The notes under the pieces are model-generated. The model saw only the letters and a program-made list of their open reading frames with translations. It ran no database searches and was not told where the DNA came from. The translations under genes were made by a program, and so were the position numbers. Positions 45,697 through 63,920 of a DNA stretch of 64,000 nt are shown piece by piece; the stretch's first letter is position 1, and each line of letters starts with the position of its first letter. Origin of the DNA: a virus (Duplodnaviria > Caudoviricetes); IMG/VR virus record IMGVR_UViG_3300027804_002812, positions 96,001 to 160,000 of that record. The stretch is one strand, 5' to 3'.

Positions 45697-45888
45697 ATGA
45701 TAATAATAAAAATCACCCAGGGTAATCCTCTTGAGAAAGCTCTCAAGACCCTAAAGTCAAAAGTAATTAAAACAAAACAAAATCAGATTTTATTTGATAG
45801 AAAGCAATATACAAAAAAATCTGTACTTAGAAGAGCACAGATTCTGAAGGCAAAACATATTCAAAGTCTCAAAGACCAATCAAATTGA
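45697..45888 (+). CDS. rpsU: 30S ribosomal protein bS21
   Basis: MIIIKITQGNPLEKALKTLKSKVIKTKQ..L..RK.YTKKSVLRRAQILKA..IQ aligns gap-free with Bacteroidota bS21. Its position inside the head module matches known bS21 phages. Confidence 0.9.
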   Translation: MIIIKITQGNPLEKALKTLKSKVIKTKQNQILFDRKQYTKKSVLRRAQILKAKHIQSLKDQSN

Positions 45889-46599: not shown

Positions 46600-48453
46600 T
46601 TATGAATTTAATAACTTATTCAACTCTTTTGAAATTTCTACCAAAGAATCTTGTGCCTGACCCAAATTTATTATCTGTGACCCTTCGATTAAATTATTTT
46701 CTACTAAAATGTTAAGGTCTTTTTTTGTTGATTCAGGTGTTACTTCTGCGGGTGGAGCTTCTTCTGCTCCTCCTCCTGCCGGTGGAGTTTCCGTTCCTAA
46801 ATCGAGACCCGACGGTTCTGACCCGAATGATGGTGGTGACGCCAATTCTTCTCCTCCATCCATAGTTGTTTCCGCCCCAGCAGTTGGAGTTGAACCTGTT
46901 TGACTACCATACAATTTGTCGATATTATCAAACAAACCTGTTTTGGTTATCACAGTTGGAGTTGCTTTAAGTTCTTCTCCAACCGCTCTTTCGATTCTTT
47001 GTTGTTGTAGGTCTAAACGAACTTCATCATCAGACCAACCAAATATGTGTTTCTTAGCCCATGTAGATGAAGTTGCCTGTATTCCATTTCCTGGATCGGC
47101 AACCAAATCCTTGTATAATAATACCTTTTCTTTCCAAACATCAATCTTCAGCAAATCTGCTTGAGTTGATGGGTTTGTTAATCCAAGTGTAAAATTGGAT
47201 AATTCATCTTCGAATCCTAATAAAAATAAATGTACAATGGCAATTTTATTAAGTTCTGCCAACATACTTTTTTGGATTCTATTAATTGTACGAGCAAATC
47301 TAATGTCTTGTAACGCCAAGTTTTTACCATCGCCTACCACTTCTTCAAAACCCAAGAATGCTTTTGGTACTCGTAGAGCAGTTAACAATTTCTTCTGAAT
47401 GTATTCAATGTCGGCAATTTCAGATAAGTTAGTTGCACCTGGCAAAGTATCGATAGGTGTTGGTGCTGCAGGATCTCTTACAGGTATGAAATAATCTTGG
47501 TCAACCGCCATTTGATTGAATCTCATGTCGACATTACCTGTTTTACTATCAACAACTTGCTCTCTTTTGAATTTGTTTGCAACACGTTGTACATATGCTT
47601 CGACATCATCGTCGTTCATGTTACCCACAAAAACTTTGAATATTCTTCTCTCAGGTGCTCTCGAAGTTCTATATATTAACATAGCATCTTCACAAAGGAG
47701 TAATTGTTTCCAAATACGTCTTGCTTTTTCCAACATTGATGTTCCATAAGGAAGTTTTCTATCATCACCCAATAATCTGAAGTGAGCCATCTCCCAAGAT
47801 TGAAACTCCATGTTTTTATTTTTCCATGTAAAGTGTAATGCTTTTCTGTCTTTATCAACTTCATTTTTAACATCAACAGATATTTTACCACTGGCACCAA
47901 CTTCATGTCTTTCAATTTCTATGGTTGGTAATTGTTGACATCCAACAATTCCTTTCTCAGGGTCTAATTTAAGATACACGAAATTGTCTCCATATTTACA
48001 GGTATTCCGTGTCCACATTGGAAGATTGGTATTAACATCTAAAGCATTGTTAAACAAATCGGCTAATACCCCCTTTATTCTTTTTGATTCAGAATAAATT
48101 TGTAATATGAATCCATCTTCATTTGTTGTAGTGGATTCTTCAGCATAAATGTCTAATGCCGCAGAAATCTCAGGAGTGTATTCCATTGATTCATAATCAT
48201 ATTGGGCAGATAATCTTGTTGGTTCATAATAAATTGCTTGAGAATAAAGATTATTCTCAACTTTAGCCCATTGATTGGTAAGATAATATGTTTGTTGTGC
48301 TTGGAGTTTTTCTTTCTCGTATTCCTCTCTACTTTTGGTTCGCAGGAGTTCCTTTTTATCAAACTTGAATGTTGGATAATCTTGATTGAGAAGTGAATTC
48401 GGTCCAAATGTTTGTGACAATCTTTGCCAAACTGTCATATTTTGTTCTGCCAT
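46600..48453 (-). CDS. gp20: T4-like portal protein
   Basis: PEISAALDIYAEE, KARRIWKQL.LCEDAMLIYR..RAPERRIF.V.VGN, DYFIPVR..., IDTLPG. Confidence 0.96.
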   Translation of the reverse strand: MAEQNMTVWQRLSQTFGPNSLLNQDYPTFKFDKKELLRTKSREEYEKEKLQAQQTYYLTNQWAKVENNLYSQAIYYEPTRLSAQYDYESMEYTPEISAALDIYAEESTTTNEDGFILQIYSESKRIKGVLADLFNNALDVNTNLPMWTRNTCKYGDNFVYLKLDPEKGIVGCQQLPTIEIERHEVGASGKISVDVKNEVDKDRKALHFTWKNKNMEFQSWEMAHFRLLGDDRKLPYGTSMLEKARRIWKQLLLCEDAMLIYRTSRAPERRIFKVFVGNMNDDDVEAYVQRVANKFKREQVVDSKTGNVDMRFNQMAVDQDYFIPVRDPAAPTPIDTLPGATNLSEIADIEYIQKKLLTALRVPKAFLGFEEVVGDGKNLALQDIRFARTINRIQKSMLAELNKIAIVHLFLLGFEDELSNFTLGLTNPSTQADLLKIDVWKEKVLLYKDLVADPGNGIQATSSTWAKKHIFGWSDDEVRLDLQQQRIERAVGEELKATPTVITKTGLFDNIDKLYGSQTGSTPTAGAETTMDGGEELASPPSFGSEPSGLDLGTETPPAGGGAEEAPPAEVTPESTKKDLNILVENNLIEGSQIINLGQAQDSLVEISKELNKLLNS

Positions 48454-48489: not shown

Positions 48490-50250
48490 TTATTTAGCAC
48501 CAAATAACCAACCATATTTTTGATAATCTGCTTTACTAGCACCATTATTATTTAGGTTTGGGTCTCTACCCATTTGAGGTACCATTGGATTAAAAAATTC
48601 TGAAGTATTTTTATTCTCATTCACAACTGATGCCCATGAATTTAACATTGCCTTAGTATGGTTAACAACTTTTGTTAATGATTGAAATGATTTTTCTGCA
48701 ATATAAATTGCCATTGATAATCCCATAATACAGTCATCATGTTGACCTTTTTGGTGATCAGGTCTTCCATTTATATAGACGAAGGTATTCATCTCGTTAT
48801 ATGTCCTATGAGAATATATTTTGAATCCATGTCTAACACCTTCTTCAAATGCGGCAATAATTTGAACTCTTTTAGTATTGAAGTTAATTCCAGGAATTCT
48901 GTCATTTATCTTTGGATCCCACTTCCACTTATTAGATGTGTCAACCCCATCAACATAAAGTCCTGGTTGGTATTGTAATTCTTGCATTTTTCTTGCAGTC
49001 GAAACTCCCATACCACCAGTTATATCAATTACACAAAATGCATTGTACATTGTTCCCCATTTATATGCAATCTCAGCTAATACATCTGGAGGAATTTTTC
49101 CAACGTATTCTAATACTTGTTCTCGTTCATTAAAGTCAATAATTTGTATGGATGAAAAATCTTCTGAATCACCACGAGAAACGTCAACACCCATTACATA
49201 CTTGTGACCATTTACAGGTTCCTTGAAAATCCATAAAGCATTACCCATAAGTTTTGCTTGGGGTGTTTGTAATTGATTTTTAGCAATGTTCTGCATCAAA
49301 TCAGAATCGAATACGTTATCACCCGACCCCAAGAAATTACATTCCAATTCTTGAGCAACTTTACGTCGGTCATACTTAAGTTTCTTTACCATCCCCTCGA
49401 ACCATGATGAACAAGGTTTGTAACCCTTTTCAATATAATCCGTAACTATGCCATGGTCTCTTTCGTATGGACTATCTGTACTTAAATCAATAACGGTATC
49501 TATTGGATAATCTTCTCTGTTGAGTAAATAATGAACCAAATCATTTGTTTTGACCATATACAAATCCTTTGTATATCTAGGGTCTCTGTACCAAAACATT
49601 TCTGAGATTTTGAAATCATTCATACCTCTTAATGCTTGGTCGTAGATTTCATAATAGATTGGGTCGTATCCGTTTGGAGTTGATACCACAATAACTTTAC
49701 CACCTGTAGATAGTGATGCCATACAAGCTGACCAGAAGTCACCATCAGCCTCGATAAATGCCGCTTCATCAAAAATAAGAATAGTAGGAGTATAACCTCT
49801 CAACGCATCTTTAGATGTTGCAACAGATTTTACTTCACATCCATTATTGAGTTTGAAATGTCTTTGAGAATTTTTTTCAGCAGAAAATGCTATCCCCACC
49901 CAAGCAGGCCACTGTTCAATGAATCCCCTAATCTTATTTGCCATTTCAACTGAGGTATCCAATTTGTTGGCAATGATTAGAATCTTTTCAGGTTTTTCCT
50001 TTCTAGCAAAGGCGAGTTTTTTTGAAGACCAAGCGGCGGTCACGGTTGACACACCTGCTTGTCTATATTTTAAGGCAATATTTTCGTTGTATTTTTCGTA
50101 GTCCTCGAGTAGTGAAACTTGGTCGGGAAAAAGTTCTAACGGAACATACTTTGAAACTGTATTATCGTATGTCTGTAAATAAGTACGAAGTGCATAAGGG
50201 GTATTCCTCATACACTTCGTATATTCTATAATTAATTGTTCTTTATTCAC
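48490..50250 (-). CDS. gp17: terminase large subunit
   Basis: LKYRQAGVST, LRGYTPTILIFDEAAF, VSTPNG, QELECNF, MGVDVSRG, HDDCIM. Confidence 0.95.
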   Translation of the reverse strand: MNKEQLIIEYTKCMRNTPYALRTYLQTYDNTVSKYVPLELFPDQVSLLEDYEKYNENIALKYRQAGVSTVTAAWSSKKLAFARKEKPEKILIIANKLDTSVEMANKIRGFIEQWPAWVGIAFSAEKNSQRHFKLNNGCEVKSVATSKDALRGYTPTILIFDEAAFIEADGDFWSACMASLSTGGKVIVVSTPNGYDPIYYEIYDQALRGMNDFKISEMFWYRDPRYTKDLYMVKTNDLVHYLLNREDYPIDTVIDLSTDSPYERDHGIVTDYIEKGYKPCSSWFEGMVKKLKYDRRKVAQELECNFLGSGDNVFDSDLMQNIAKNQLQTPQAKLMGNALWIFKEPVNGHKYVMGVDVSRGDSEDFSSIQIIDFNEREQVLEYVGKIPPDVLAEIAYKWGTMYNAFCVIDITGGMGVSTARKMQELQYQPGLYVDGVDTSNKWKWDPKINDRIPGINFNTKRVQIIAAFEEGVRHGFKIYSHRTYNEMNTFVYINGRPDHQKGQHDDCIMGLSMAIYIAEKSFQSLTKVVNHTKAMLNSWASVVNENKNTSEFFNPMVPQMGRDPNLNNNGASKADYQKYGWLFGAK

Positions 50251-55391: not shown

Positions 55392-56135
55392 TCAGTCTTC
55401 CAATTTTCTCTCAATAGAAAGTTCTTTATCGAGAGCTTTATTTGACATATCAAACAATTTTTCAATGTGTCCCGACCTTCTCAAAAACTTAAAAACCAAG
55501 TTTTCATACGAAAGTTCACCTTCTTTTTCCAAACCTGATTTTCTATAATTTTTTAATTTTTCTTTGATTGAATCTATCAATTTGATATCATCTTCCGAAC
55601 TTTCGGATTCAATTACCTTATCAATTTTTTCAGTCCAGTTTTTGATTTTCTTTTCCAAAACTGATTTATCAATCTCGTTTTCTAACTGTTTAGGTTTTGT
55701 CACCCATTCATCATTCATTACTGAATAAACACCTGTTGCGAAATGTGGCTCTTCATTATCTTGTGCATATAATTCGACATCATACCCAAATATTTTAATA
55801 TCGTGTTTGTCGTTGAATACTTGTTTCTTTAGATTATACAATTCTTTATATAAAGGAGCTTCATCTTCGAATTGTTGTAAATCTACAAGAATGTGTAAAT
55901 CAAAATCAGAATATTCCGACCAATTAAAATTAGCTAATGATCCAGTTAAAACAATATCTTCAACAAAAACATCTTCACCAAGATAATCGATGAATTTTTC
56001 GGCAATCTTCAATAAAGCGTTTTTCACCTTCGGAACCATCTTTGCTTTCTGTGGGTTCTCAGGGTTCTCCCAAATTTTTGGATTGAGAGTTTCTTGTACT
56101 GAAAAACTATTAAGGATTTTTTGAAAATTATTCAT
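55392..56135 (-). CDS. Pol-beta superfamily nucleotidyltransferase
   Basis: IVLTGSLANFNWSEYSDFDLHILVD (GS...DxD), third acidic residue in DVELY, ENLVFKFLRR. Confidence 0.8.
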   Translation of the reverse strand: MNNFQKILNSFSVQETLNPKIWENPENPQKAKMVPKVKNALLKIAEKFIDYLGEDVFVEDIVLTGSLANFNWSEYSDFDLHILVDLQQFEDEAPLYKELYNLKKQVFNDKHDIKIFGYDVELYAQDNEEPHFATGVYSVMNDEWVTKPKQLENEIDKSVLEKKIKNWTEKIDKVIESESSEDDIKLIDSIKEKLKNYRKSGLEKEGELSYENLVFKFLRRSGHIEKLFDMSNKALDKELSIERKLED

Positions 56136-56146
56136 CTAGATAAATA

Positions 56147-56389
56147 CTATAACTTCTTATACTTGAACGTCTTTGATATGTCCGTAGTAAAAAACTTTCC
56201 TTGCGACTCCGACATTCTGAATTTTGTATACACTTGGTGAGGTACATCTTCGTACTCATATTTGAATCCATTATTAAATTCTACTACAAGTTTTTTTGTT
56301 TCCGTGTCGTATTCTGTTTTTTTAATGTTGGAAGATTTTATTTCATTAATAATCTTCGTCCCCTGAATCTCTTCTTTCAGTATCGCCAT
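56147..56389 (-). CDS. KTSC domain protein
   Basis: SSNIKKTEYD...LVVEFNNG..YEY.DVP..VY..F..SESQGKFF. Confidence 0.9.
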   Translation of the reverse strand: MAILKEEIQGTKIINEIKSSNIKKTEYDTETKKLVVEFNNGFKYEYEDVPHQVYTKFRMSESQGKFFTTDISKTFKYKKL

Positions 56390-56790: not shown

Positions 56791-57309
56791 TCAAACTGCG
56801 AATCTGTCGTAAGAAACTCGTAATTTAGGGTTTCTCAAAAGTGTTTTAATTCGTTCAATGTTAGATGCTAAGTCTCCCTCAATCCATTTCAGGACTAAAG
56901 TATTTGGATTACCTTCAAAAGGTACAAATCCATTATCCTCTGCAATTTTTTTCATTTCAGGGGTTTTATATGTAAAATACACGCCTCCATTATTCCGAAT
57001 CGACAAATTATATGTCTCAATCGCAACTTTTTTTGCCGTATCATAAAATTTATCCGTATAATCAATGTGACTATACGGTCTACCGTTAAATGTTCCAAAG
57101 TTATCTCTCGAAGGTTTTTTGAATGACACCAATGAGCTTTTAACCTTTCCGAAAGATTCTTCGTTTTCTAAAGATTTAGGTTCATCTTCTTTCTTTGGTT
57201 CAACTTTTTTTGTAGGGTCGAATTCGATGTTCAAATCACTTTGTTCCTTAATAACCCGTTTTACCAATCTAACCAAATCGGATTCGGTTAATCTTATTGT
57301 TTTTTTCAT
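56791..57309 (-). CDS. hypothetical protein with LTESDL leader
   Basis: MKKTIRLTESDLVRLVKRVIKEQ. Confidence 0.8.
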   Translation of the reverse strand: MKKTIRLTESDLVRLVKRVIKEQSDLNIEFDPTKKVEPKKEDEPKSLENEESFGKVKSSLVSFKKPSRDNFGTFNGRPYSHIDYTDKFYDTAKKVAIETYNLSIRNNGGVYFTYKTPEMKKIAEDNGFVPFEGNPNTLVLKWIEGDLASNIERIKTLLRNPKLRVSYDRFAV

Positions 57310-57314
57310 TTTAT

Positions 57315-57602
57315 TTATAACTTATGGTTTACAGTACAAAAAACTTTTTTAGTTGCACCTCTCAATAATCCATCAATCTTAAGGAGAGGAGTTTTTATTT
57401 GATTATGTACTTCTTGATATTCTTCAACTTCGGAATCTTTTGGAACGAGTTTTCCGGCCTTACAAACATCATTGTAATATTTTTCTTTAAGTTTTCTATC
57501 CAATTTTAAGAATCTTACTTTGGAGTCGGTTCCTGTTTCGGCGATTACTTTTTTAACCAATCTTGTTAAATCAGATTCGGTTAATCTTATAATTTTTTTC
57601 AT
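57315..57602 (-). CDS. hypothetical protein with LTESDL leader
   Basis: MKKIIRLTESDLTRLVKKVIAE, plus IDGLLRGAT, which resembles a PG-binding-1 'DG..G..T' remnant. Confidence 0.8.
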   Translation of the reverse strand: MKKIIRLTESDLTRLVKKVIAETGTDSKVRFLKLDRKLKEKYYNDVCKAGKLVPKDSEVEEYQEVHNQIKTPLLKIDGLLRGATKKVFCTVNHKL

Positions 57603-57624: not shown

Positions 57625-57663
57625 AAAAAAAAATCCCCACCTTTTGAGTGGGGATTTTTTTTT
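57625..57663. terminator. bidirectional-type intrinsic terminator
   Basis: AAAAAATCCCCAC-cttttga-GTGGGGATTTTTT. Confidence 0.85.
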
Positions 57664-58033
57664 ACTTTAGTTTTTTGAGTTGGTCTCGAATCTCGATTGA
57701 TTTTTCAAAATTTTGTTCTTCGATTGACTTTTTAAGTTCCTCTTCAAGTTTATCGATTTCCTTTTGGTTTGATTCCAACTTTTTAATTTGGTCTCTCAAT
57801 TCAACCGCTTTTTCAAAATCCTCATTTTCAATTGCGATTTCAAGTTGTTGTTTCAGATTTTTTGAAGTTGGGTTTGTTTTAGTGTTGTCGTAGTAATACG
57901 TAGTTATTTTCATTGTTCCATCTTCTGAAACTTTAGTTTGAGTTTTCCACTCACCGTTAGATGGGGTTAATTGATTGAACATTTCGTCGAATGTTCTAAA
58001 GATGTCGTTATAAGATCTTCTGTTACCAAACAT
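57662..58033 (-). CDS. tandem UVR (UvrB/UvrC motif) protein, McsA-like adaptor candidate
   Basis: LKQQLEIAIENEDFEKAVELRDQIKKLE and LEEELKKSIEEQNFEKSIEIRDQLKKLK. Confidence 0.85.
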   Translation of the reverse strand: MFGNRRSYNDIFRTFDEMFNQLTPSNGEWKTQTKVSEDGTMKITTYYYDNTKTNPTSKNLKQQLEIAIENEDFEKAVELRDQIKKLESNQKEIDKLEEELKKSIEEQNFEKSIEIRDQLKKLK

Positions 58034-58101
58034 AATTTTAGTTTTTTGTTTTAAGTTTATTTGTTATCTTTGTTCCAAGATTTATGCCGGTAGTGGTTCT
58101 A

Positions 58102-58114
58102 TGACAATATGTCA
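58102..58114. promoter_or_regulatory. palindromic operator TGACA-ATA-TGTCA
   Basis: Perfect 5-3-5 inverted repeat in the UVR/clpC divergent intergenic region. Confidence 0.6.
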
Positions 58115-58144
58115 GAAAAAGATATAATAAAAATAAATATTTCC

Positions 58145-58157
58145 TGACAATTTGTCA
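58145..58157. promoter_or_regulatory. palindromic operator TGACA-ATT-TGTCA
   Basis: Second copy, 43 bp from the first. Confidence 0.6.
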
Positions 58158-58212
58158 AATCATTTGGATAAGAATAAAAATTGTTATTACTTTGTAAAAA
58201 TTAAAAAACATT

Positions 58213-60225
58213 ATGAACGACTTAATGGACGACGAAGACAAAATGATGAGTAAAAAACAGAAGTCAGGAGATACCTCGACACCTGTTCTAGACAATTTCA
58301 GTAGAGATTTGAATAAACTTGCAGAGGCGGGTAAGTTGGACCCTGTCATCGGAAGAGACCGAGAGATTCTACGAATCGCACAAATTCTTTCCCGAAGAAA
58401 GAAAAATAATCCAATTATTCTTGGTGAACCTGGTTGTGGTAAAACTGCAATTGTTGAAGGTTTGGCGATGAAAATTGTCAATGGTGATTGTCCTCGTAAT
58501 CTTTTGGATAAAAGATTGGTTAACCTTGACCTAACTTCAGTTGTTGCTGGTACAAAGTATCGTGGACAATTTGAAGAAAGAATGAAGGTTATCATCGAAG
58601 AACTTCAGGCTAATCCTAACATCATCGTATTCATTGATGAAATTCATACTTTGGTTGGCTCAGGTAATTCTTCAGGTTCGATGGATGGTTCCAACATTTT
58701 CAAACCAGCACTATCTCGTGGTGAACTACAAGTAATCGGTGCAACCACTTTGGATGAGTTCAGAAAGAACATCGAAAAAGATGGGGCATTGGAACGTAGA
58801 TTCCAAAAAGTTATTGTTGACCCATCTACAGTGACTGAGACAATCCAAATTTTGAAGAATGTTCGGGACAAATACGAAACATATCACAAAGTGACTTATT
58901 CCGATGAAGTCATTGAAACTTGTGTTAAGTTGGCGGATAGATATATCACCGACCGTGAATTCCCTGACAAAGCATTCGACATCTTGGATGAAGTTGGTGC
59001 TAGAATGCAGACCGAACTTAAGGTTCCTGAGGCTATCGAAGAGTTGAAGCGTAAAGCTGCAGAACTTAAACAACAGAAGTTGGATGTAGTTAAAAAACAG
59101 AATTACGAACAAGCCGCACAACTCAGAGACAAAGAGAAAAAGTTGTTGGACAAATTGGACCAAGAAAAACAAAAATTCGAGGAACAAATGTCCAAAGACA
59201 AACAAAAGGTCGGAATGGATGATGTTTATGATGTTGTTTCAAACATGACTAAAATCCCTGTTAACAAAATGTCTACGGATGATACCAAAGCGTTGTTGAA
59301 CTTGGACAAACACATTGTTGGAACTGTCATTGGTCAGGATGCCGCGGTTATCAAGGTTGCAAAATCTATCAAGAGAAACCGACTAGGTATCAAAGATCCA
59401 AATCGTCCGATTGGTTCATTCGTTTTCTTGGGTTCAACAGGTGTTGGTAAAACTCACTTAGCAAAACAACTTGCAAAGGAAATGTTTGGAAGTGAGGACG
59501 CGCTAATCCGTGTGGATATGTCTGAGTACCAAGAGAAACATACCGTATCCAAATTGGTTGGAGCACCTCCAGGCTATGTTGGATACGAAGAAGGTGGATT
59601 GTTGACTGAGAAAGTTAAGAACAAGCCTTACTCTGTTATCTTGTTTGATGAGGTTGAGAAAGCTCACAAAGATGTATTCACCGTATTACTTCAAATCTTG
59701 GACGATGGTCACGTTACGGATAGTTTGGGTAGAAAGATTAACTTCAAGAATACCCTAATTATCTTAACATCAAATCTCGGAGTTAAAAAACTACAAGACT
59801 TCGGAACTGGTATTGGATTCTCATCAAGTACCTATGGTAACGAAGAGGCGAAGAAAGAAATCTTGATGAAAGAAATGAAGAATTTCTTTTCTCCTGAGTT
59901 TATCAACCGTATCGATGACACCATTGTTTTCAATTCTCTATCTCAAGAGGATATCAAGAAAATCACCGACATCGAACTTAAGAAGTTGATGAAGCGTCTT
60001 GACGAAATGAAGTATAAGATTACTTATGATGAATCACTTTTGAATTACCTCTCAAAAATCGGATATGATGAGGTATACGGTGCAAGACCACTCAAGAGAG
60101 CGATTCAGGATAAAGTTGAAGACTTATTATCTGAAGAAGTTCTGACCGACAAAATTATAGTAGGAAAAACCTACGTGATTAAAGTCGAAGATGAAGTAGT
60201 CAAAGTAGTCAAGAAAGGTCGGTAA
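58213..60225 (+). CDS. clpC: ClpC-type AAA+ ATPase lacking the N-terminal Clp-repeat domain
   Basis: [24 protein letters not shown]-type M domain, [30 protein letters not shown] ClpP-docking loop, YGARPL. Confidence 0.92.
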
Positions 60226-60228
60226 ATT

Positions 60229-60255
60229 AAAAAGGGGATAATTCCCCTTTTTTTT
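60229..60255 (+). terminator. intrinsic terminator after clpC
   Basis: AAAAGGGG-ataatt-CCCCTTTT plus a T tract. Confidence 0.8.
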
Positions 60256-60256
60256 A

Positions 60257-60264
60257 TATTTATA
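60257..60264 (+). promoter_or_regulatory. TATTTATA motif
   Basis: 3 nt upstream of ATG 60268, just after the clpC terminator. Confidence 0.55.
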
Positions 60265-60267
60265 GAC

Positions 60268-60876
60268 ATGAGTAATTTTTCCCGACTATTAGACAAATTC
60301 AAAAATTCATTCCCAAAAGACTTACAATCAAAAGTTGATGTAATTGAAAATTTTGTTGTGGGATATATTCAAGAAAATGACCTCAATGTAAAGTTCTTGA
60401 ATTCATGTTCCGCAGGGTTCAAAGGAGTTAGGACAAGAGACCAAATTATTATTTGTTCTCCAATCAGTATGGAAACCATAGGAGACTTTTTATATACCAT
60501 ATTTCACGAAATCAGGCATGAGCAACAGATTAGAGATTTGAAAATGTTAAATCCTTTAACGGATTTTGATTTAGAGGATTTCGAGGCTCTTTACGAACAA
60601 TACTGGAATATGGAGTTGGATGCCGATAAATTCGCAAAAGAAATGGTGGCAAAACTGGTAATCAAATTGGGGATTCCAATCGATATTGCAAAAAAATTAT
60701 TTTCGTTGTCACCATACGTTCAGCAATATCCAACCATGTCAAACATGGTTCGTGGAGGTATTCAACAAATTATTAATGACATTAAGAGAATAAAAAAATC
60801 GGGTGGAGAATATACTGATATTCAAGACCACCCGGTAGTACAAAGACACATCGATAAGTTAGAGGATTTTATTTAA
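60268..60876 (+). CDS. putative zincin metallopeptidase (HExxH)
   Basis: TIFHEIRHEQQ and downstream ELDADKFA (ImmA/IrrE-like pattern). Confidence 0.6.
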   Translation: MSNFSRLLDKFKNSFPKDLQSKVDVIENFVVGYIQENDLNVKFLNSCSAGFKGVRTRDQIIICSPISMETIGDFLYTIFHEIRHEQQIRDLKMLNPLTDFDLEDFEALYEQYWNMELDADKFAKEMVAKLVIKLGIPIDIAKKLFSLSPYVQQYPTMSNMVRGGIQQIINDIKRIKKSGGEYTDIQDHPVVQRHIDKLEDFI

Positions 60877-61508
60877 TCTATCAACTTCAATATTATCGTA
60901 TAAAAAGTTGATTTACCTTCCCACCCGTAAGAATCATAATCGACTGATTCAACTGAAAAATGTTGATTAGATAACACACGAATATCTTCTTCGGTTACAC
61001 CATCGCAGTTTTCAATTAATACAATTTTCCCATTTGGGTTTAGGTATCTATGTACAGATTCGAAAAACTTTTTATGAAATTGCATGTCATAGTCCAAAGA
61101 GATTAATTTTTCTTCACTACTTCTATAACCATTAGGTCTTTCAGTTTTGAAATGTGGGGGGTTTGATACGATAGTGTCAAACTTATTGGAGTCCTCCATT
61201 GAATCAAAACAATCGGACTGAATAAACTCAACTTTCAGATTATTAAATCGATTTGTTGTTTCTATACTATCTCGAACCTCGGGATTAATATCTGACAAAA
61301 CTAATCTATTTGCTTTATTATATTTCAATAAAGTGTAACCGATGAATCCAGGCCCTGAACATATTTCCAATACGTCCCCTTGGTCTTGAATTTTATTTAT
61401 AATATCGGATTTGGTAATGGCATTAAATCCAAAAGTAGTGCCACCTCCGTCAAACCTTTTTTCGTAGAATACTGAAAGATCGATGATATTGAATAATTCC
61501 ATAATCAA
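60873..61508 (-). CDS. class I SAM methyltransferase (HemK/MTS-like, NPPH)
   Basis: VLEICSGPGFIG, LSDINP, SDCF, DTIVSNPPHF. Confidence 0.8.
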   Translation of the reverse strand: MIMELFNIIDLSVFYEKRFDGGGTTFGFNAITKSDIINKIQDQGDVLEICSGPGFIGYTLLKYNKANRLVLSDINPEVRDSIETTNRFNNLKVEFIQSDCFDSMEDSNKFDTIVSNPPHFKTERPNGYRSSEEKLISLDYDMQFHKKFFESVHRYLNPNGKIVLIENCDGVTEEDIRVLSNQHFSVESVDYDSYGWEGKSTFYTIILKLID

Positions 61509-62338
61509 AAGGGATGAAATTGTCCTCTTGGCACCGACTTTTTGAAATGTAATTTATACCCTAACTCGTCAATCATTTTTCTTCCCATTTCTATCCCATT
61601 GAATACGTCCTCAATAACGACATATTCTTCTGGCGTATGATAATCATAATATCCAATAGAAAAATTAATACAAGAAAAATCAAATTTACTTCTCAAGGCA
61701 TAAACGTCTGTATATGGGTGAACCATATATTGCATTTGTTCATTAATCATTCCTTCAGTCAAAACCTTATCAATTTTTTCGAAGAACTCGGTACCTCTGT
61801 CAAATAACATCTGTCCAAAACATTTTTCAGTAATCATCCAATTTTCGGGGGCATCGAACTGAATACCATATCCAACATTTTCAAAAAATTTGGAATCGGC
61901 AGCTTTTGAGCCATGACATCCAGTTTCTTCTGAAACGAAGAATGCCGCTTTAAGGTATGGTAATTCTTTAAGTAAAGTTAAACAGGCAAACACACCACAT
62001 TTGTCGTCTCCTCCAATGCCTGTCGGTCTCTCGTTATCATTAAATGCTTTCAATGCTGGCTTCAATTCACCTTGGGCATTTTTCAACATCATTTCTTTTA
62101 CGTTGATTGTATCGATATGGTGAACTGTATCTGTATGTGATATTACACAAGGAAAATAAAAATCTTCAGGAAGGTCTGTTGTTCCTTGTTTGGTTGCATA
62201 GATATTCATTGTGTCATCGACATAATGTTCTATATTGTTTTCGGTTAACCAATTAACCAAAAATTCAACCATACGATGTTCTTGGTAAGTTTTTGTGGGT
62301 ACGCTCAGAACTTCTTTGAGCAAAGTTATATCTTTCAT
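61505..62338 (-). CDS. M28/M20/M42-type Zn peptidase
   Basis: SHTDTV, GGDDKCG, SEETGCHGS, QFDA, YHTPEE metal-ligand motifs. Confidence 0.8.
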   Translation of the reverse strand: MKDITLLKEVLSVPTKTYQEHRMVEFLVNWLTENNIEHYVDDTMNIYATKQGTTDLPEDFYFPCVISHTDTVHHIDTINVKEMMLKNAQGELKPALKAFNDNERPTGIGGDDKCGVFACLTLLKELPYLKAAFFVSEETGCHGSKAADSKFFENVGYGIQFDAPENWMITEKCFGQMLFDRGTEFFEKIDKVLTEGMINEQMQYMVHPYTDVYALRSKFDFSCINFSIGYYDYHTPEEYVVIEDVFNGIEMGRKMIDELGYKLHFKKSVPRGQFHPF

Positions 62339-62358
62339 TCTATAAAGATATAAATAAA

Positions 62359-63402
62359 TTAGATTTCATCCAAACTAAATAATGAAGGTTGGTATAATAA
62401 ATTGTAAAAATTTTGTTCACTTAAAGATACTGTCTTTTGTTTTAATCCTTTCGACAATGTCACTATTATTTTCATTTCAGGAAACTTAAATCCTTCAATT
62501 TTGAACCTTATTTCTTTTTTGGGGTCTTTTGGTAAAAAGTAATATTCTTCTTGTCTAAATTTTTTCAAAATTCTCGAAGTCATATCAGTGAAATCTTTGA
62601 AACTAACTCCCTCTTCTTCTCCCTCTTCTTGAATCGTATCCAAAATTTCAGTAAAAATTGTGTTTGCGACTCTGTTGAAGCCTAAAGAGTCAAACTCATT
62701 GGGGTCTTCATAAGCATAATAATCTTCTTCCCAACCGCCTGGTGCTTCTTTTCTACTAAAAATCCTTTCTAATAATTCTTTCAAAGAAATATGGAGTTCA
62801 CCTTCTTCAATATACAACGCTATCAAGTCTGCTACCGTAATTCTGAAACCTTCACTATATGCGTCAATACCCAACTCAGCAAAATACTCATCCATTTCTT
62901 TATTTATCTCTCTTGCAAGTGATGTCTTGAATGCATGATTTTTTTCGTCTACGTAATCTTCAATAACGTATTTTATTTTTTTTCCGAAATTTTCCATTAA
63001 TTTTTCAGATAACTCCTTTCTGTATTCGTCATCTTCAAAGTTGACTTTCATAGGAAGTATGGCGTTGGAAATTTCAGACAATAGCTCCTTATTTTCTTCG
63101 TCCAAAGTGTAGTAAAACCCATACCCCACCATAAAATCTTCTACTGCGGAATAGTGATCCAAAAATTCATACTCAGAATAAGGTGCATTCACCATTTGAT
63201 AAAACCAAACATCATCATCCCGCATTCCCAACATTTCTAAAAAATCTTGTTGATTGCGAAATTCAACATCAATAACACTCTGACCAGGCGTACTTCTGTC
63301 TTCTCTCATGTACGAGAATAGCTTATCAGAGGCTAAAAGTTCATCTTTGGTTATTTTGTGTTTAGCGTAATTTCTTAATGACCTGAAAGTTTCATAATTC
63401 AT
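62359..63402 (-). CDS. hypothetical acidic phage protein
   Basis: 347-aa ORF from ATG 63402 (MNYETF), with TATTTAT 7 nt upstream. Confidence 0.75.
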   Translation of the reverse strand: MNYETFRSLRNYAKHKITKDELLASDKLFSYMREDRSTPGQSVIDVEFRNQQDFLEMLGMRDDDVWFYQMVNAPYSEYEFLDHYSAVEDFMVGYGFYYTLDEENKELLSEISNAILPMKVNFEDDEYRKELSEKLMENFGKKIKYVIEDYVDEKNHAFKTSLAREINKEMDEYFAELGIDAYSEGFRITVADLIALYIEEGELHISLKELLERIFSRKEAPGGWEEDYYAYEDPNEFDSLGFNRVANTIFTEILDTIQEEGEEEGVSFKDFTDMTSRILKKFRQEEYYFLPKDPKKEIRFKIEGFKFPEMKIIVTLSKGLKQKTVSLSEQNFYNLLYQPSLFSLDEI

Positions 63403-63438
63403 ACTACAAATAAATATCAATTTAGTTGGATTCGGAAA

Positions 63439-63446
63439 TATTTATA
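63439..63446 (+). promoter_or_regulatory. TATTTATA motif
   Basis: Upstream of the tmRNA, a non-coding gene. Confidence 0.55.
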
Positions 63447-63448
63447 CT

Positions 63449-63456
63449 TACATTTG
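63449..63456 (+). promoter_or_regulatory. Bacteroidota-type -7 element (TACATTTG) for tmRNA
   Basis: TAnnTTTG 9 nt before the mature 5' end, with a TTG element ~19 nt upstream. Confidence 0.55.
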
Positions 63457-63465
63457 TACAACAAT

Positions 63466-63882
63466 GGGGGTGAAATAGAATTGATTAACGTTTGTATAAT
63501 CAATGGGCACGTAGTCAGAATTCATCTATGACTTGAATCTACGGTGAAGAAAGTAAACGGCAATACTCTTGCTAAGATGTCTGCTTTAGGTTTAACTAGA
63601 GAAGCATCTGTTGTAACTGCTTAAGAAGTAGATACAACGTCAGGTCGAATGGGCATATAACCTAGGAACAGAAGCCCTCCAAGGTGTGATACCACCCGAA
63701 GCGTATCAAAAGGTCACGTTCAGAGGACTACCTTAGTAAAAGTGAACTCGACACAGTTGTTGGTAACGATGTCAAAATAGGAACCATCTATTTCGGAAGG
63801 TATCACAAACCTTGGCCTAAACGTGTAGTCCATTTTTGATATGGCGGGTAAGACTGGGAGGCGGTATCCCACACCTCCACCA
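63466..63882 (+). ncRNA. ssrA: tmRNA (one-piece), tag GNTLAKMSALGLTREASVVTA*
   Basis: Acceptor stem GGGGGTG/CACCTCC with G3:U70, discriminator A and encoded CCA. T-stem TGGGA/TCCCA, helix CACGT/ACGTG, and an internal ORF at 63559-63624 ending in Ala-stop. Confidence 0.9.
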
Positions 63883-63884
63883 TT

Positions 63885-63920
63885 AAATAAAAAAGGGAGT
63901 CATTGACTCCCTTTTTTTTT
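63885..63920. terminator. bidirectional intrinsic terminator after tmRNA
   Basis: AAAAGGGAGTCA-t-TGACTCCCTTTT. Confidence 0.85.

Follow-up and report, generated by a model that had tools for sequence, protein, structure and literature searches.

The window analysed here is a stretch of 64,000 nucleotides (nt) comprising positions 96001-160000 of the 326,291-bp IMG/VR virus record IMGVR_UViG_3300027804_002812, a genome of a freshwater jumbo phage that CheckV rates as complete. Towards its end, between positions 57662 and 63882, a ClpC-type unfoldase and a transfer-messenger RNA (tmRNA) stand among genes for a small UVR protein, an HExxH protein, a methyltransferase, a peptidase and a conserved protein that we call g353. 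The original prediction described this run as one coordinated system in which ribosomes stalled by host defences are rescued and their products routed through a phage-specified tag and unfoldase. On balance, we favour a looser arrangement: a lineage-specific proteostasis neighbourhood at the edge of the structural core in a clade of ~300-330 kb freshwater phages, rather than a single six-gene system. All of the features originally listed are present where they had been placed, and they are given below together with the signals around the tmRNA.

57662..58033, minus strand: tandem-UVR mini-protein of 123 amino acids (aa), divergent from ClpC (Pfam PF02151, E 1.3e-15, two UVR stretches)
58213..60225, plus strand: N-domain-less ClpC-type double AAA+ unfoldase of 670 aa (Pfam AAA, AAA_lid_9, UVR M-domain, AAA_2 and ClpB_D2-small)
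60268..60876, plus strand: zincin-like HExxH protein of 202 aa, between ClpC and the peptidase
60873..61508, minus strand: class I S-adenosylmethionine (SAM) methyltransferase with an NPPH motif (Pfam MTS, E 5.6e-15)
61505..62338, minus strand: lid-less M20/PepT-like zinc exopeptidase of 277 aa, clan MH (phrog_4191 peptidase, E 8e-33)
62359..63402, minus strand: g353, 347 aa from the ATG at 63402, with no fold recognised in searches, running in the same direction as the peptidase and diverging from the tmRNA
63449..63456, plus strand: TACATTTG, -7 promoter element (TAnnTTTG), separated by 9 nt from the mature 5' end of the tmRNA
63466..63882, plus strand: one-piece tmRNA of 417 nt with encoded CCA and the variant T-loop GGCGGUA (full-length Rfam RF00023 plus comparative evidence)
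63559..63624, plus strand: tag reading frame within the tmRNA, with resume codon GGC, 21 codons and then TAA; tag GNTLAKMSALGLTREASVVTA
63889..63917, plus strand: intrinsic terminator hairpin with a 13-pair stem and a T-run, directly 3' of the tmRNA (terminator scan)

Co-conservation of these genes, as the original prediction had claimed, was checked by synteny in 80 related loci whose ClpC is 68-99% identical to that of the window, using hidden Markov model (HMM) searches and counting among the loci long enough to judge. The claim held for ClpC and three of its neighbours, since the peptidase was present in 69/71 eligible loci, g353 in 55/55 and the tmRNA in 42/42. ClpC (+), peptidase (-), g353 (-) and tmRNA (+) form a conserved block of fixed order and orientation, and this four-part block persists despite internal insertions of up to ~3.6 kb. 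It failed for the other three genes: the UVR protein was found in 36 of 72 eligible loci, the HExxH protein in 23 of 71, all of them close relatives, and the methyltransferase, apart from the window, in one locus (L005) of the 80. Judged by this distribution, the methyltransferase is a recent insertion, and it and the HExxH protein are both later insertions outside the conserved block. Strands alternate along the stretch, which divides its genes among four or more transcription units, and three of the six genes are not co-conserved; a single coordinated six-gene system is not supported.

The phage ClpC carries an AAA module at residues 69-196, the UVR motif of its M-domain at 280-311, an AAA_2 module at 398-569 (E 1e-68) and a ClpB_D2-small domain. 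The protein begins ~40 residues before the Walker A motif, the profile phrog_4871 aligns to it only from profile position 157, and Clp_N (PF02861) was found neither in ClpC nor anywhere else in the genome. This architecture is general in the family, all 74 homologues being 664-686 aa long and without an N-domain; in a homologue search with the ClpC of the window, near-identical metagenomic copies filled the matches listed, and no cellular relatives were among these. The ClpP-docking loop, G-T-G-I-G-F at residues 531-536, has its G533, G535 and F536 invariant in 38 sequences (G-x-G-I/V-G-F), which speaks for ClpP-dependent proteolysis over pure chaperoning. A phage ClpP gene lies at genome position 173934-174461, 20 kb from ClpC, and the distance is 22-32 kb in four relatives. 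ClpC is the sole AAA_2 module of the genome and no ClpX zinc finger was found in it, leaving the phage ClpP with no phage-encoded partner other than ClpC. Within the M-domain, Tyr298 occupies the position of F436 in B. subtilis ClpC and is conserved in at least 90% of relatives.

This residue has a particular significance in engineered forms of ClpC. In S. aureus, deltaN-ClpC assembles into hexamers that bind ClpP and are inactive, as M-domains lock head-to-head ring dimers via F436; deltaN-ClpC-F436A is an adaptor-independent protease that degrades GFP-SsrA, and the SsrA degron is read by the ClpC pore and not by the N-domain (PMC12583610). Similarly, deltaNTD-ClpC1 of M. tuberculosis unfolds an SsrA-tagged protein (PMC6274998). 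By analogy with this published work on N-less ClpC, reading of the tag by the phage ClpC is plausible.

Recognition of the tmRNA required comparative evidence, as neither ARAGORN nor Rfam at its gathering score called one in the window or in the whole genome. In a permissive Rfam search the full-length RF00023 model (1-374) aligned at 38.4 bits against a gathering score of 47, and the weak 'sraA' matches of the same search coincide with the terminator hairpin after the tmRNA. We attribute the miss to the variant T-loop, and thus to failure of the detectors rather than absence of the gene. ARAGORN does call tmRNAs in 12 relatives, and an nhmmer profile detected homologues in 62 of the 80 related loci, the loci without one all ending too early to contain it. 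The window acceptor stem (GGGGGUG / CACCUCC, followed by ACCA) forms seven pairs, including G3:U70, and has a discriminator A and a 3' CCA. Among 44 distinct tmRNA versions, G1:C72, G2:C71, G3:U70 and the discriminator A are invariant, and compensatory substitutions occur at acceptor positions 4-7 and in the T stem; together these point to an alanine-accepting tRNA-like domain under selection. On these comparisons we take the window tmRNA to be genuine. Of 57 family members, 29 encode the 3' CCA, and the rest would need the host CCA-adding enzyme.

The T-loop itself (63859-63865) reads GGCGGUA on a 5-bp stem; it does not fit the canonical UUCRANY and lacks U54, U55 and A58. The loop in most relatives is TTCGANT, and a GGCRGNN variant occurs in about five distinct diverged relatives whose stems are intact and co-vary. 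From this recurrence, the variant seems to be tolerated or selected rather than a one-off defect. T-loop variants observed in L020, L022, L044, L053 and L072 are GGCAGAG, GGCGGAA, GGCGGCA, GGCAGUA and GUCGGAG.

Signals for separate expression flank the tmRNA on both sides. The element TAnnTTTG, which we take to be a -7 promoter box of the Bacteroides/Bacteroidota type, precedes the tmRNA by no more than 70 nt in 48 of 58 distinct upstream sequences (background 5.3%), and for this reason the host of the phage clade is probably a member of the Bacteroidota. Downstream, the terminator scan found one site where 0.4 were expected. SmpB (PF01668) was not found in the 326-kb genome; the tmRNA would therefore have to use SmpB, AlaRS and EF-Tu of the host. 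A scan of bacterial genomes for the motif GGTCG-N(8-18)-ACCYWGSAACAGRAG gave scattered chance matches only, and none of the 80 stored bacterial loci from that scan fitted the tmRNA family profile or ARAGORN, a result that does not address carriage by bacteria.

The peptide that this tmRNA encodes is unusually long, and it is conserved. Its frame is open in 61 of 61 full-length family copies, which specify ~46 distinct peptides of 21-22 codons with the pattern G-N-[TV]-[FLI]-x-K-[ML]-x-x-[LIV]-G-L-x-[RK]-E-x-x-V-V-x-A. Entropy at the three codon positions is 0.82/0.64/1.23, the third being the most variable; dN/dS has a median of 0.46, and stops interrupt the remaining frames in 40 of 42 sequences. 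The internal G-L is invariant and conservation extends over the whole length of the tag. The tag is specific to the phage lineage, and these patterns of substitution show it to be under selection at the peptide level; such selection implies that something reads it.

Of the two remaining block members, the peptidase is where the gene identities originally proposed needed revision: those of ClpC, the tmRNA, the UVR protein, the HExxH motif and the NPPH methyltransferase stood, whereas the supposed M28 peptidase is M20/PepT-like. No M28 family matched it in Pfam at E <= 0.01, while M42 scored 23.8 bits (cut-off 23.2) and M20 20.9 (cut-off 24.6). Against the PDB it matched Peptidase T (3gb0) with E 1.7e-6 over residues 8-163 and 222-259. 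The lid/dimerisation domain is missing: the 3gb0 chain runs from 168 to 334 where the query passes from 163 to 222, and the proteins measure 373 and 277 aa, respectively. Residues H68, D70, D111, E137, E138, D162 and H234 are invariant in 35 homologues and, by motif analogy, would be the metal ligands together with the catalytic Asp/Glu.

The g353 protein belongs to no Pfam, PHROG or NCBIfam family. Its AlphaFold2 (AF2) model has a predicted local distance difference test (pLDDT) score of 89.9, and fold searches in the PDB and the ESM Atlas gave Foldseek E > 0.05, VIA Z <= 5.0 and Atlas TM <= 0.31; these searches used the whole protein, its C-terminal beta domain included, and we make no claim of a new fold. 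In the ESM Atlas, the sequence is stored from residue 7.

Upstream of ClpC and divergent from it lies a slot with alternative occupants. Of 72 loci, 36 have the UVR protein there, 17 an Hsp20 protein and none both, so that the UVR protein appears to be an optional gene of a partner slot. Both of its repeats are similar to the M-domain of ClpC, with 39% identity over 51 aa (E 2e-5) and a conserved Phe falling on Tyr298, and by this resemblance the UVR protein may modulate ClpC as a mimic of the M-domain. A complex prediction with ClpC residues 30-400 and the UVR protein reached 0.15, where the mark is 0.32, and we count this score neither for nor against an interaction. Identity with McsA was considered and rejected, as the UVR protein matched only the UVR tail of the NCBIfam McsA profile (positions 126-175, 47.9 bits against a cut-off of 210), failing the full-length family score, and left the zinc-finger N-terminal half unmatched. 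Hsp20, recognised by Pfam with E 1e-12 to 1e-14, is a holdase, and its presence as the alternative neighbour favours a role for ClpC in general quality control over that of a dedicated tag reader. The Hsp20/alpha-crystallin gene lies ~150-630 bp upstream of ClpC on the minus strand, encodes 115-157 aa and ends in an I-x-I/L tail (loci L008-L011, L019, L022, L026, L027, L029-L031, L035, L043, L044, L046, L047 and L065). No Hsp20 homologue was found by tblastn in the genome of the window. The two occupants are not homologous to one another: hhalign gave a probability of 6%, and they have only a 13-residue N-terminal motif in common.

The two insertions have features of their own. The HExxH protein has the invariant motifs FHE-x-RHE, E-x-D-A-D and DIQDHP, and its AF2 model (pLDDT 79) places the HExxH motif on a helix at residues 71-89. 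Weak matches to zincin folds were obtained with the ArdC protease domain (Z 7.0; root mean square deviation 5.3, 117 residues aligned) and PprI/IrrE (Z 5.5), and further weak ones with ImmA-like proteins, CapP and BlaR1; Foldseek gave E > 0.2, and leads in the Atlas were ImmA/IrrE-type clusters with scores below 0.9. The ArdC, PprI/IrrE, ImmA-like, CapP and BlaR1 families are mostly site-specific regulators and not bulk proteases. Homologues of the HExxH protein in L011, L017, L021, L023, L027, L028 and L033 have an N-terminal extension of ~50 residues with a CxxC...CxxC zinc-ribbon pattern, which the copy in the window lacks. The methyltransferase resembles HemK/PrmC but remains below threshold for both NCBIfam models, scoring 67.4 bits against a cut-off of 199 for PrmC (TIGR03534) and 57.4 against 87 for HemK2/MTQ2, and it carries NPPH instead of NPPY.

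DNA and RNA from freshwater samples add to the picture of the locus. Freshwater metagenome DNA runs contain 77-99% of the studied stretch. The phage was found in runs from 14 studies and more than 598 ClpC-bearing viral contigs were counted, which makes the lineage an abundant one in lakes; among GenBank phages, the region gave no megablast match. The RNA evidence comes from contigs of RNA libraries of four freshwater metatranscriptomes and indicates presence, not levels. Such contigs cover the tmRNA (four runs), ClpC and the UVR gene, and those over the tmRNA match it at 98-99% identity. They are nearly absent over 60554-63296, which holds the methyltransferase, the peptidase and g353, although in contig data this does not imply silence. 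Some RNA contigs join across 64-271 nt within the pseudoknot region of the tmRNA (window 63541-63818), most likely because they come from relatives with differing variable central domains, as seen in the family alignment.

The ClpC-tmRNA stretch comes immediately after a conserved structural block that includes the following genes.

46600-48453: T4-type portal
48490-50250: large terminase

A gene for bS21, whose takeover of initiation the run had been thought to complement, is located at about window position 45706. All 32 loci with a full flank keep two genes in the interval that separates the structural genes from the ClpC block, one for a minimal nucleotidyltransferase (weak Pol-beta/NTP_transf_2, phrog_36119; 55392-56135, minus strand) and one for a KTSC-domain protein (56147-56389, minus strand). 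The small proteins at 56791-57309(-) and 57315-57602(-) and at L073 9435-9872(-) are otherwise unrelated and have in common an N-terminal module, MKK-x-IRLTESDL-x-RLVKRVI; across relatives their conservation is low, at 3-4 of 32 loci.

What each part is, how it is built and how far it is conserved can be read directly from the comparisons above, and we infer from them a neighbourhood of four conserved, separately transcribed parts. The tmRNA, with its own host-type promoter and terminator, would be charged with alanine by the host AlaRS, would require host SmpB and would append a 21-22-residue tag ending in V-x-A. The N-less ClpC would dock via its IGF loop onto the phage ClpP or onto that of the host. 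It is probably still restrained through M-domain contacts, as the contact aromatic Tyr298 (= F436) has been kept, and it would be modulated by whichever protein occupies the divergent upstream slot, the UVR protein here and Hsp20 in other relatives. The lid-less M20 exopeptidase would trim peptides to amino acids, and g353, whose fold was not recognised by searches, would be the conserved fourth part. Taken together, the four parts most likely serve the phage's own protein quality control and amino-acid recycling in a long infection, with the tmRNA tag as one plausible input to ClpC-ClpP. Of the phage-specified tag and unfoldase originally envisaged, this retains a lineage-specific tag, the only phage Clp unfoldase and its docking loop; the lack of SmpB and a ClpP gene 20 kb away count against the original proposal.

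Several observations weigh against even this cautious assignment. The portal and terminase genes next door are equally conserved (30-32 of 32 full-flank loci), and synteny within the clade thus cannot separate functional coupling from collinearity of a core genome; the word neighbourhood may itself overstate the functional relation. One relative, complete at 321 kb, has no ClpP and retains ClpC (IGF loop included), the peptidase and the tmRNA. The M-domain contact position carries Tyr and not Phe, and the T-loop of the window tmRNA is non-canonical. Finally, we infer rather than observe the links between the parts, including those of the peptidase and g353 to Clp or to the tmRNA.

Outside the clade, linkage is mostly absent. 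In a second set of 80 loci, around sister-clade phage ClpCs that are 52-62% identical and likewise N-less, a tmRNA was found within 10 kb of ClpC once, the peptidase once and the UVR protein once, and g353, the HExxH protein and Hsp20 were not found. A true tmRNA is present in two of five large sister genomes and ClpP in four; three have ClpC but no tmRNA. Two of the five, G009 and G010, carry tmRNAs of the window family with similar long tags ~190 kb from ClpC, and the GenBank huge phages LR756502 and LR756508 likewise lack linkage. The counter-example is an adjacency of ClpP and tmRNA in G009, an unrelated phage of 380 kb, where ClpP, an open reading frame (ORF) of 133 aa and a tmRNA with a different, 26-residue tag follow one another head to tail on the same strand (L289 5337-6989 = G009:C1:81336-82988). 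The tmRNA of the window's family in G009 is a second one, elsewhere in that genome.

These distributions bear on how tightly the tmRNA and the unfoldase should be tied together. At one extreme is a dedicated circuit, in which the tmRNA writes a private degron whose conserved N-terminal half, G-N-x-x-x-K-M/L-x-x-x-G-L, is held by g353 or the UVR protein as adaptor, its V-x-A end being fed into the ClpC pore and the product passing to ClpP and then to the M20 peptidase. Strict co-conservation of ClpC, peptidase, g353 and tmRNA across insertions of up to 3.6 kb, next to a flank beyond the tmRNA that varies among related loci, is in keeping with such a circuit. So is conservation over the whole tag with its invariant internal G-L, as expected of a two-part degron, and so are the position of ClpC as sole phage Clp ATPase where ClpX is lacking, the pore-dependent degradation of SsrA substrates by deltaN-ClpC variants (PMC12583610, PMC6274998) and the different tmRNA that follows ClpP on the same strand in the unrelated G009. 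Yet the parts are transcribed separately from alternating strands, the adjoining structural genes are equally syntenic, and half of the relatives lack the UVR protein. The ClpP gene is not part of the block, and one complete genome lacks it; beyond the clade, a tmRNA accompanies only 1 of 80 sister ClpCs, three of five large sister genomes have ClpC without any tmRNA, and similar long tags are encoded ~190 kb from ClpC in G009 and G010. We therefore regard the dedicated circuit as possible but doubtful. A more elaborate form of it would be a private degradation code: a two-part degron with its front half on an adaptor (g353 or the UVR protein) and its V-x-A end threaded by the N-less ClpC, while the UVR protein, as M-domain mimic, frees head-to-head ring dimers, giving a host-independent protease in infected cells only. 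This we consider unlikely, and offer as speculation.

At the other extreme, the adjacent functions could be unrelated: the tmRNA would do nothing more than free stalled ribosomes, its tag being read by host proteases or being no ClpC degron, and the N-less ClpC would be a chaperone or unfoldase for morphogenesis or for removal of host proteins, with small heat-shock protein (sHsp) or UVR partners. The block does abut the portal and terminase genes, the tmRNA is flanked by a promoter and a terminator of its own, and N-less ClpC is widespread in huge phages with no tmRNA near; alternation of an Hsp20 holdase with the UVR protein also fits a chaperone or disaggregase better than a tag reader. However, the invariant IGF loop argues for ClpP proteolysis, the selection on the tag peptide implies a reader, and the four-part block has survived repeated insertions, making a complete lack of connection improbable in our view. 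To dismiss the window tmRNA as a decaying or non-functional relic, on the grounds that ARAGORN and the Rfam gathering score reject it and that its GGCGGUA T-loop lacks U54, U55 and A58, would be harder still. At least four other diverged relatives share the GGCRGNN loop and have stems that are intact and co-vary; the window copy shows no damage to its acceptor stem, G3:U70, CCA, tag frame, promoter or terminator; and RNA-library contigs match the gene at 98-99% identity. We give the relic hardly any credence, and return to the four-part neighbourhood of quality control and recycling as the preferred reading.

Phage tmRNAs and Clp genes have each been listed in surveys of huge phages already, and what a virus gains from a tag of its own is the question that this locus addresses. 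The lineage offers a test case in which a long tag under selection at the peptide level, a natural counterpart of deltaN-ClpC and two alternative partners in one slot occur together. If the phage ClpC does read the tag, the virus would own a degradation code; if it does not, N-less ClpC is still documented as a natural and conserved design, with a concrete hypothesis for its regulation.

The closest cellular system is bacterial trans-translation, in which tmRNA-SmpB adds an ssrA tag that is handled by ClpXP/ClpAP with SspB, or by ClpC/ClpC1 in Firmicutes and Actinobacteria. The phage locus resembles it in its one-piece tmRNA with alanine identity and a resume codon, in a tag that ends in Ala, and in a Clp unfoldase with a docking loop and a ClpP in the same genome. 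Bacterial tags typically end in L-A-A, whereas that of the phage, at 21-22 aa roughly double the common length, ends in V-x-A; the phage system is also virus-borne, has no SmpB or ClpX of its own and uses an unfoldase without an N-domain. Small proteins acting on ClpC are likewise familiar as McsA and MecA, of which McsA has a UVR-like motif and MecA contacts the M-domain. The phage UVR protein differs from both in consisting of two UVR motifs only, with no zinc fingers and no MecA fold. The Clp_N repeat domain is the binding site for MecA, McsB and phospho-arginine, and this N-domain, which both adaptors require, is missing from the phage ClpC.

Among viruses, huge phages and the Bacillus megaphage G are known to carry a tmRNA and, separately, ClpP with a Clp ATPase, the genes being listed without linkage, and phage G has a 13-residue tag and ClpX-ClpP (PMC7162821; PMC12484599). 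The present lineage differs from these in its N-less ClpC, its longer tag and an order of ClpC, peptidase, g353 and tmRNA that is fixed across a large uncultured clade. In architecture the phage unfoldase is most like the engineered deltaN-ClpC and deltaN-ClpC-F436A of S. aureus and deltaNTD-ClpC1 of M. tuberculosis, which lack the N-domain, keep the M-domain and the ClpP loop, assemble into hexamers that bind ClpP and, by way of the pore, can process SsrA substrates (PMC12583610, PMC6274998). By analogy with deltaN-ClpC, the phage ClpC may need a factor to release its M-domain contacts. Unlike the engineered forms, it is a natural and conserved protein that carries Tyr at the F436 position, and its activity is predicted.

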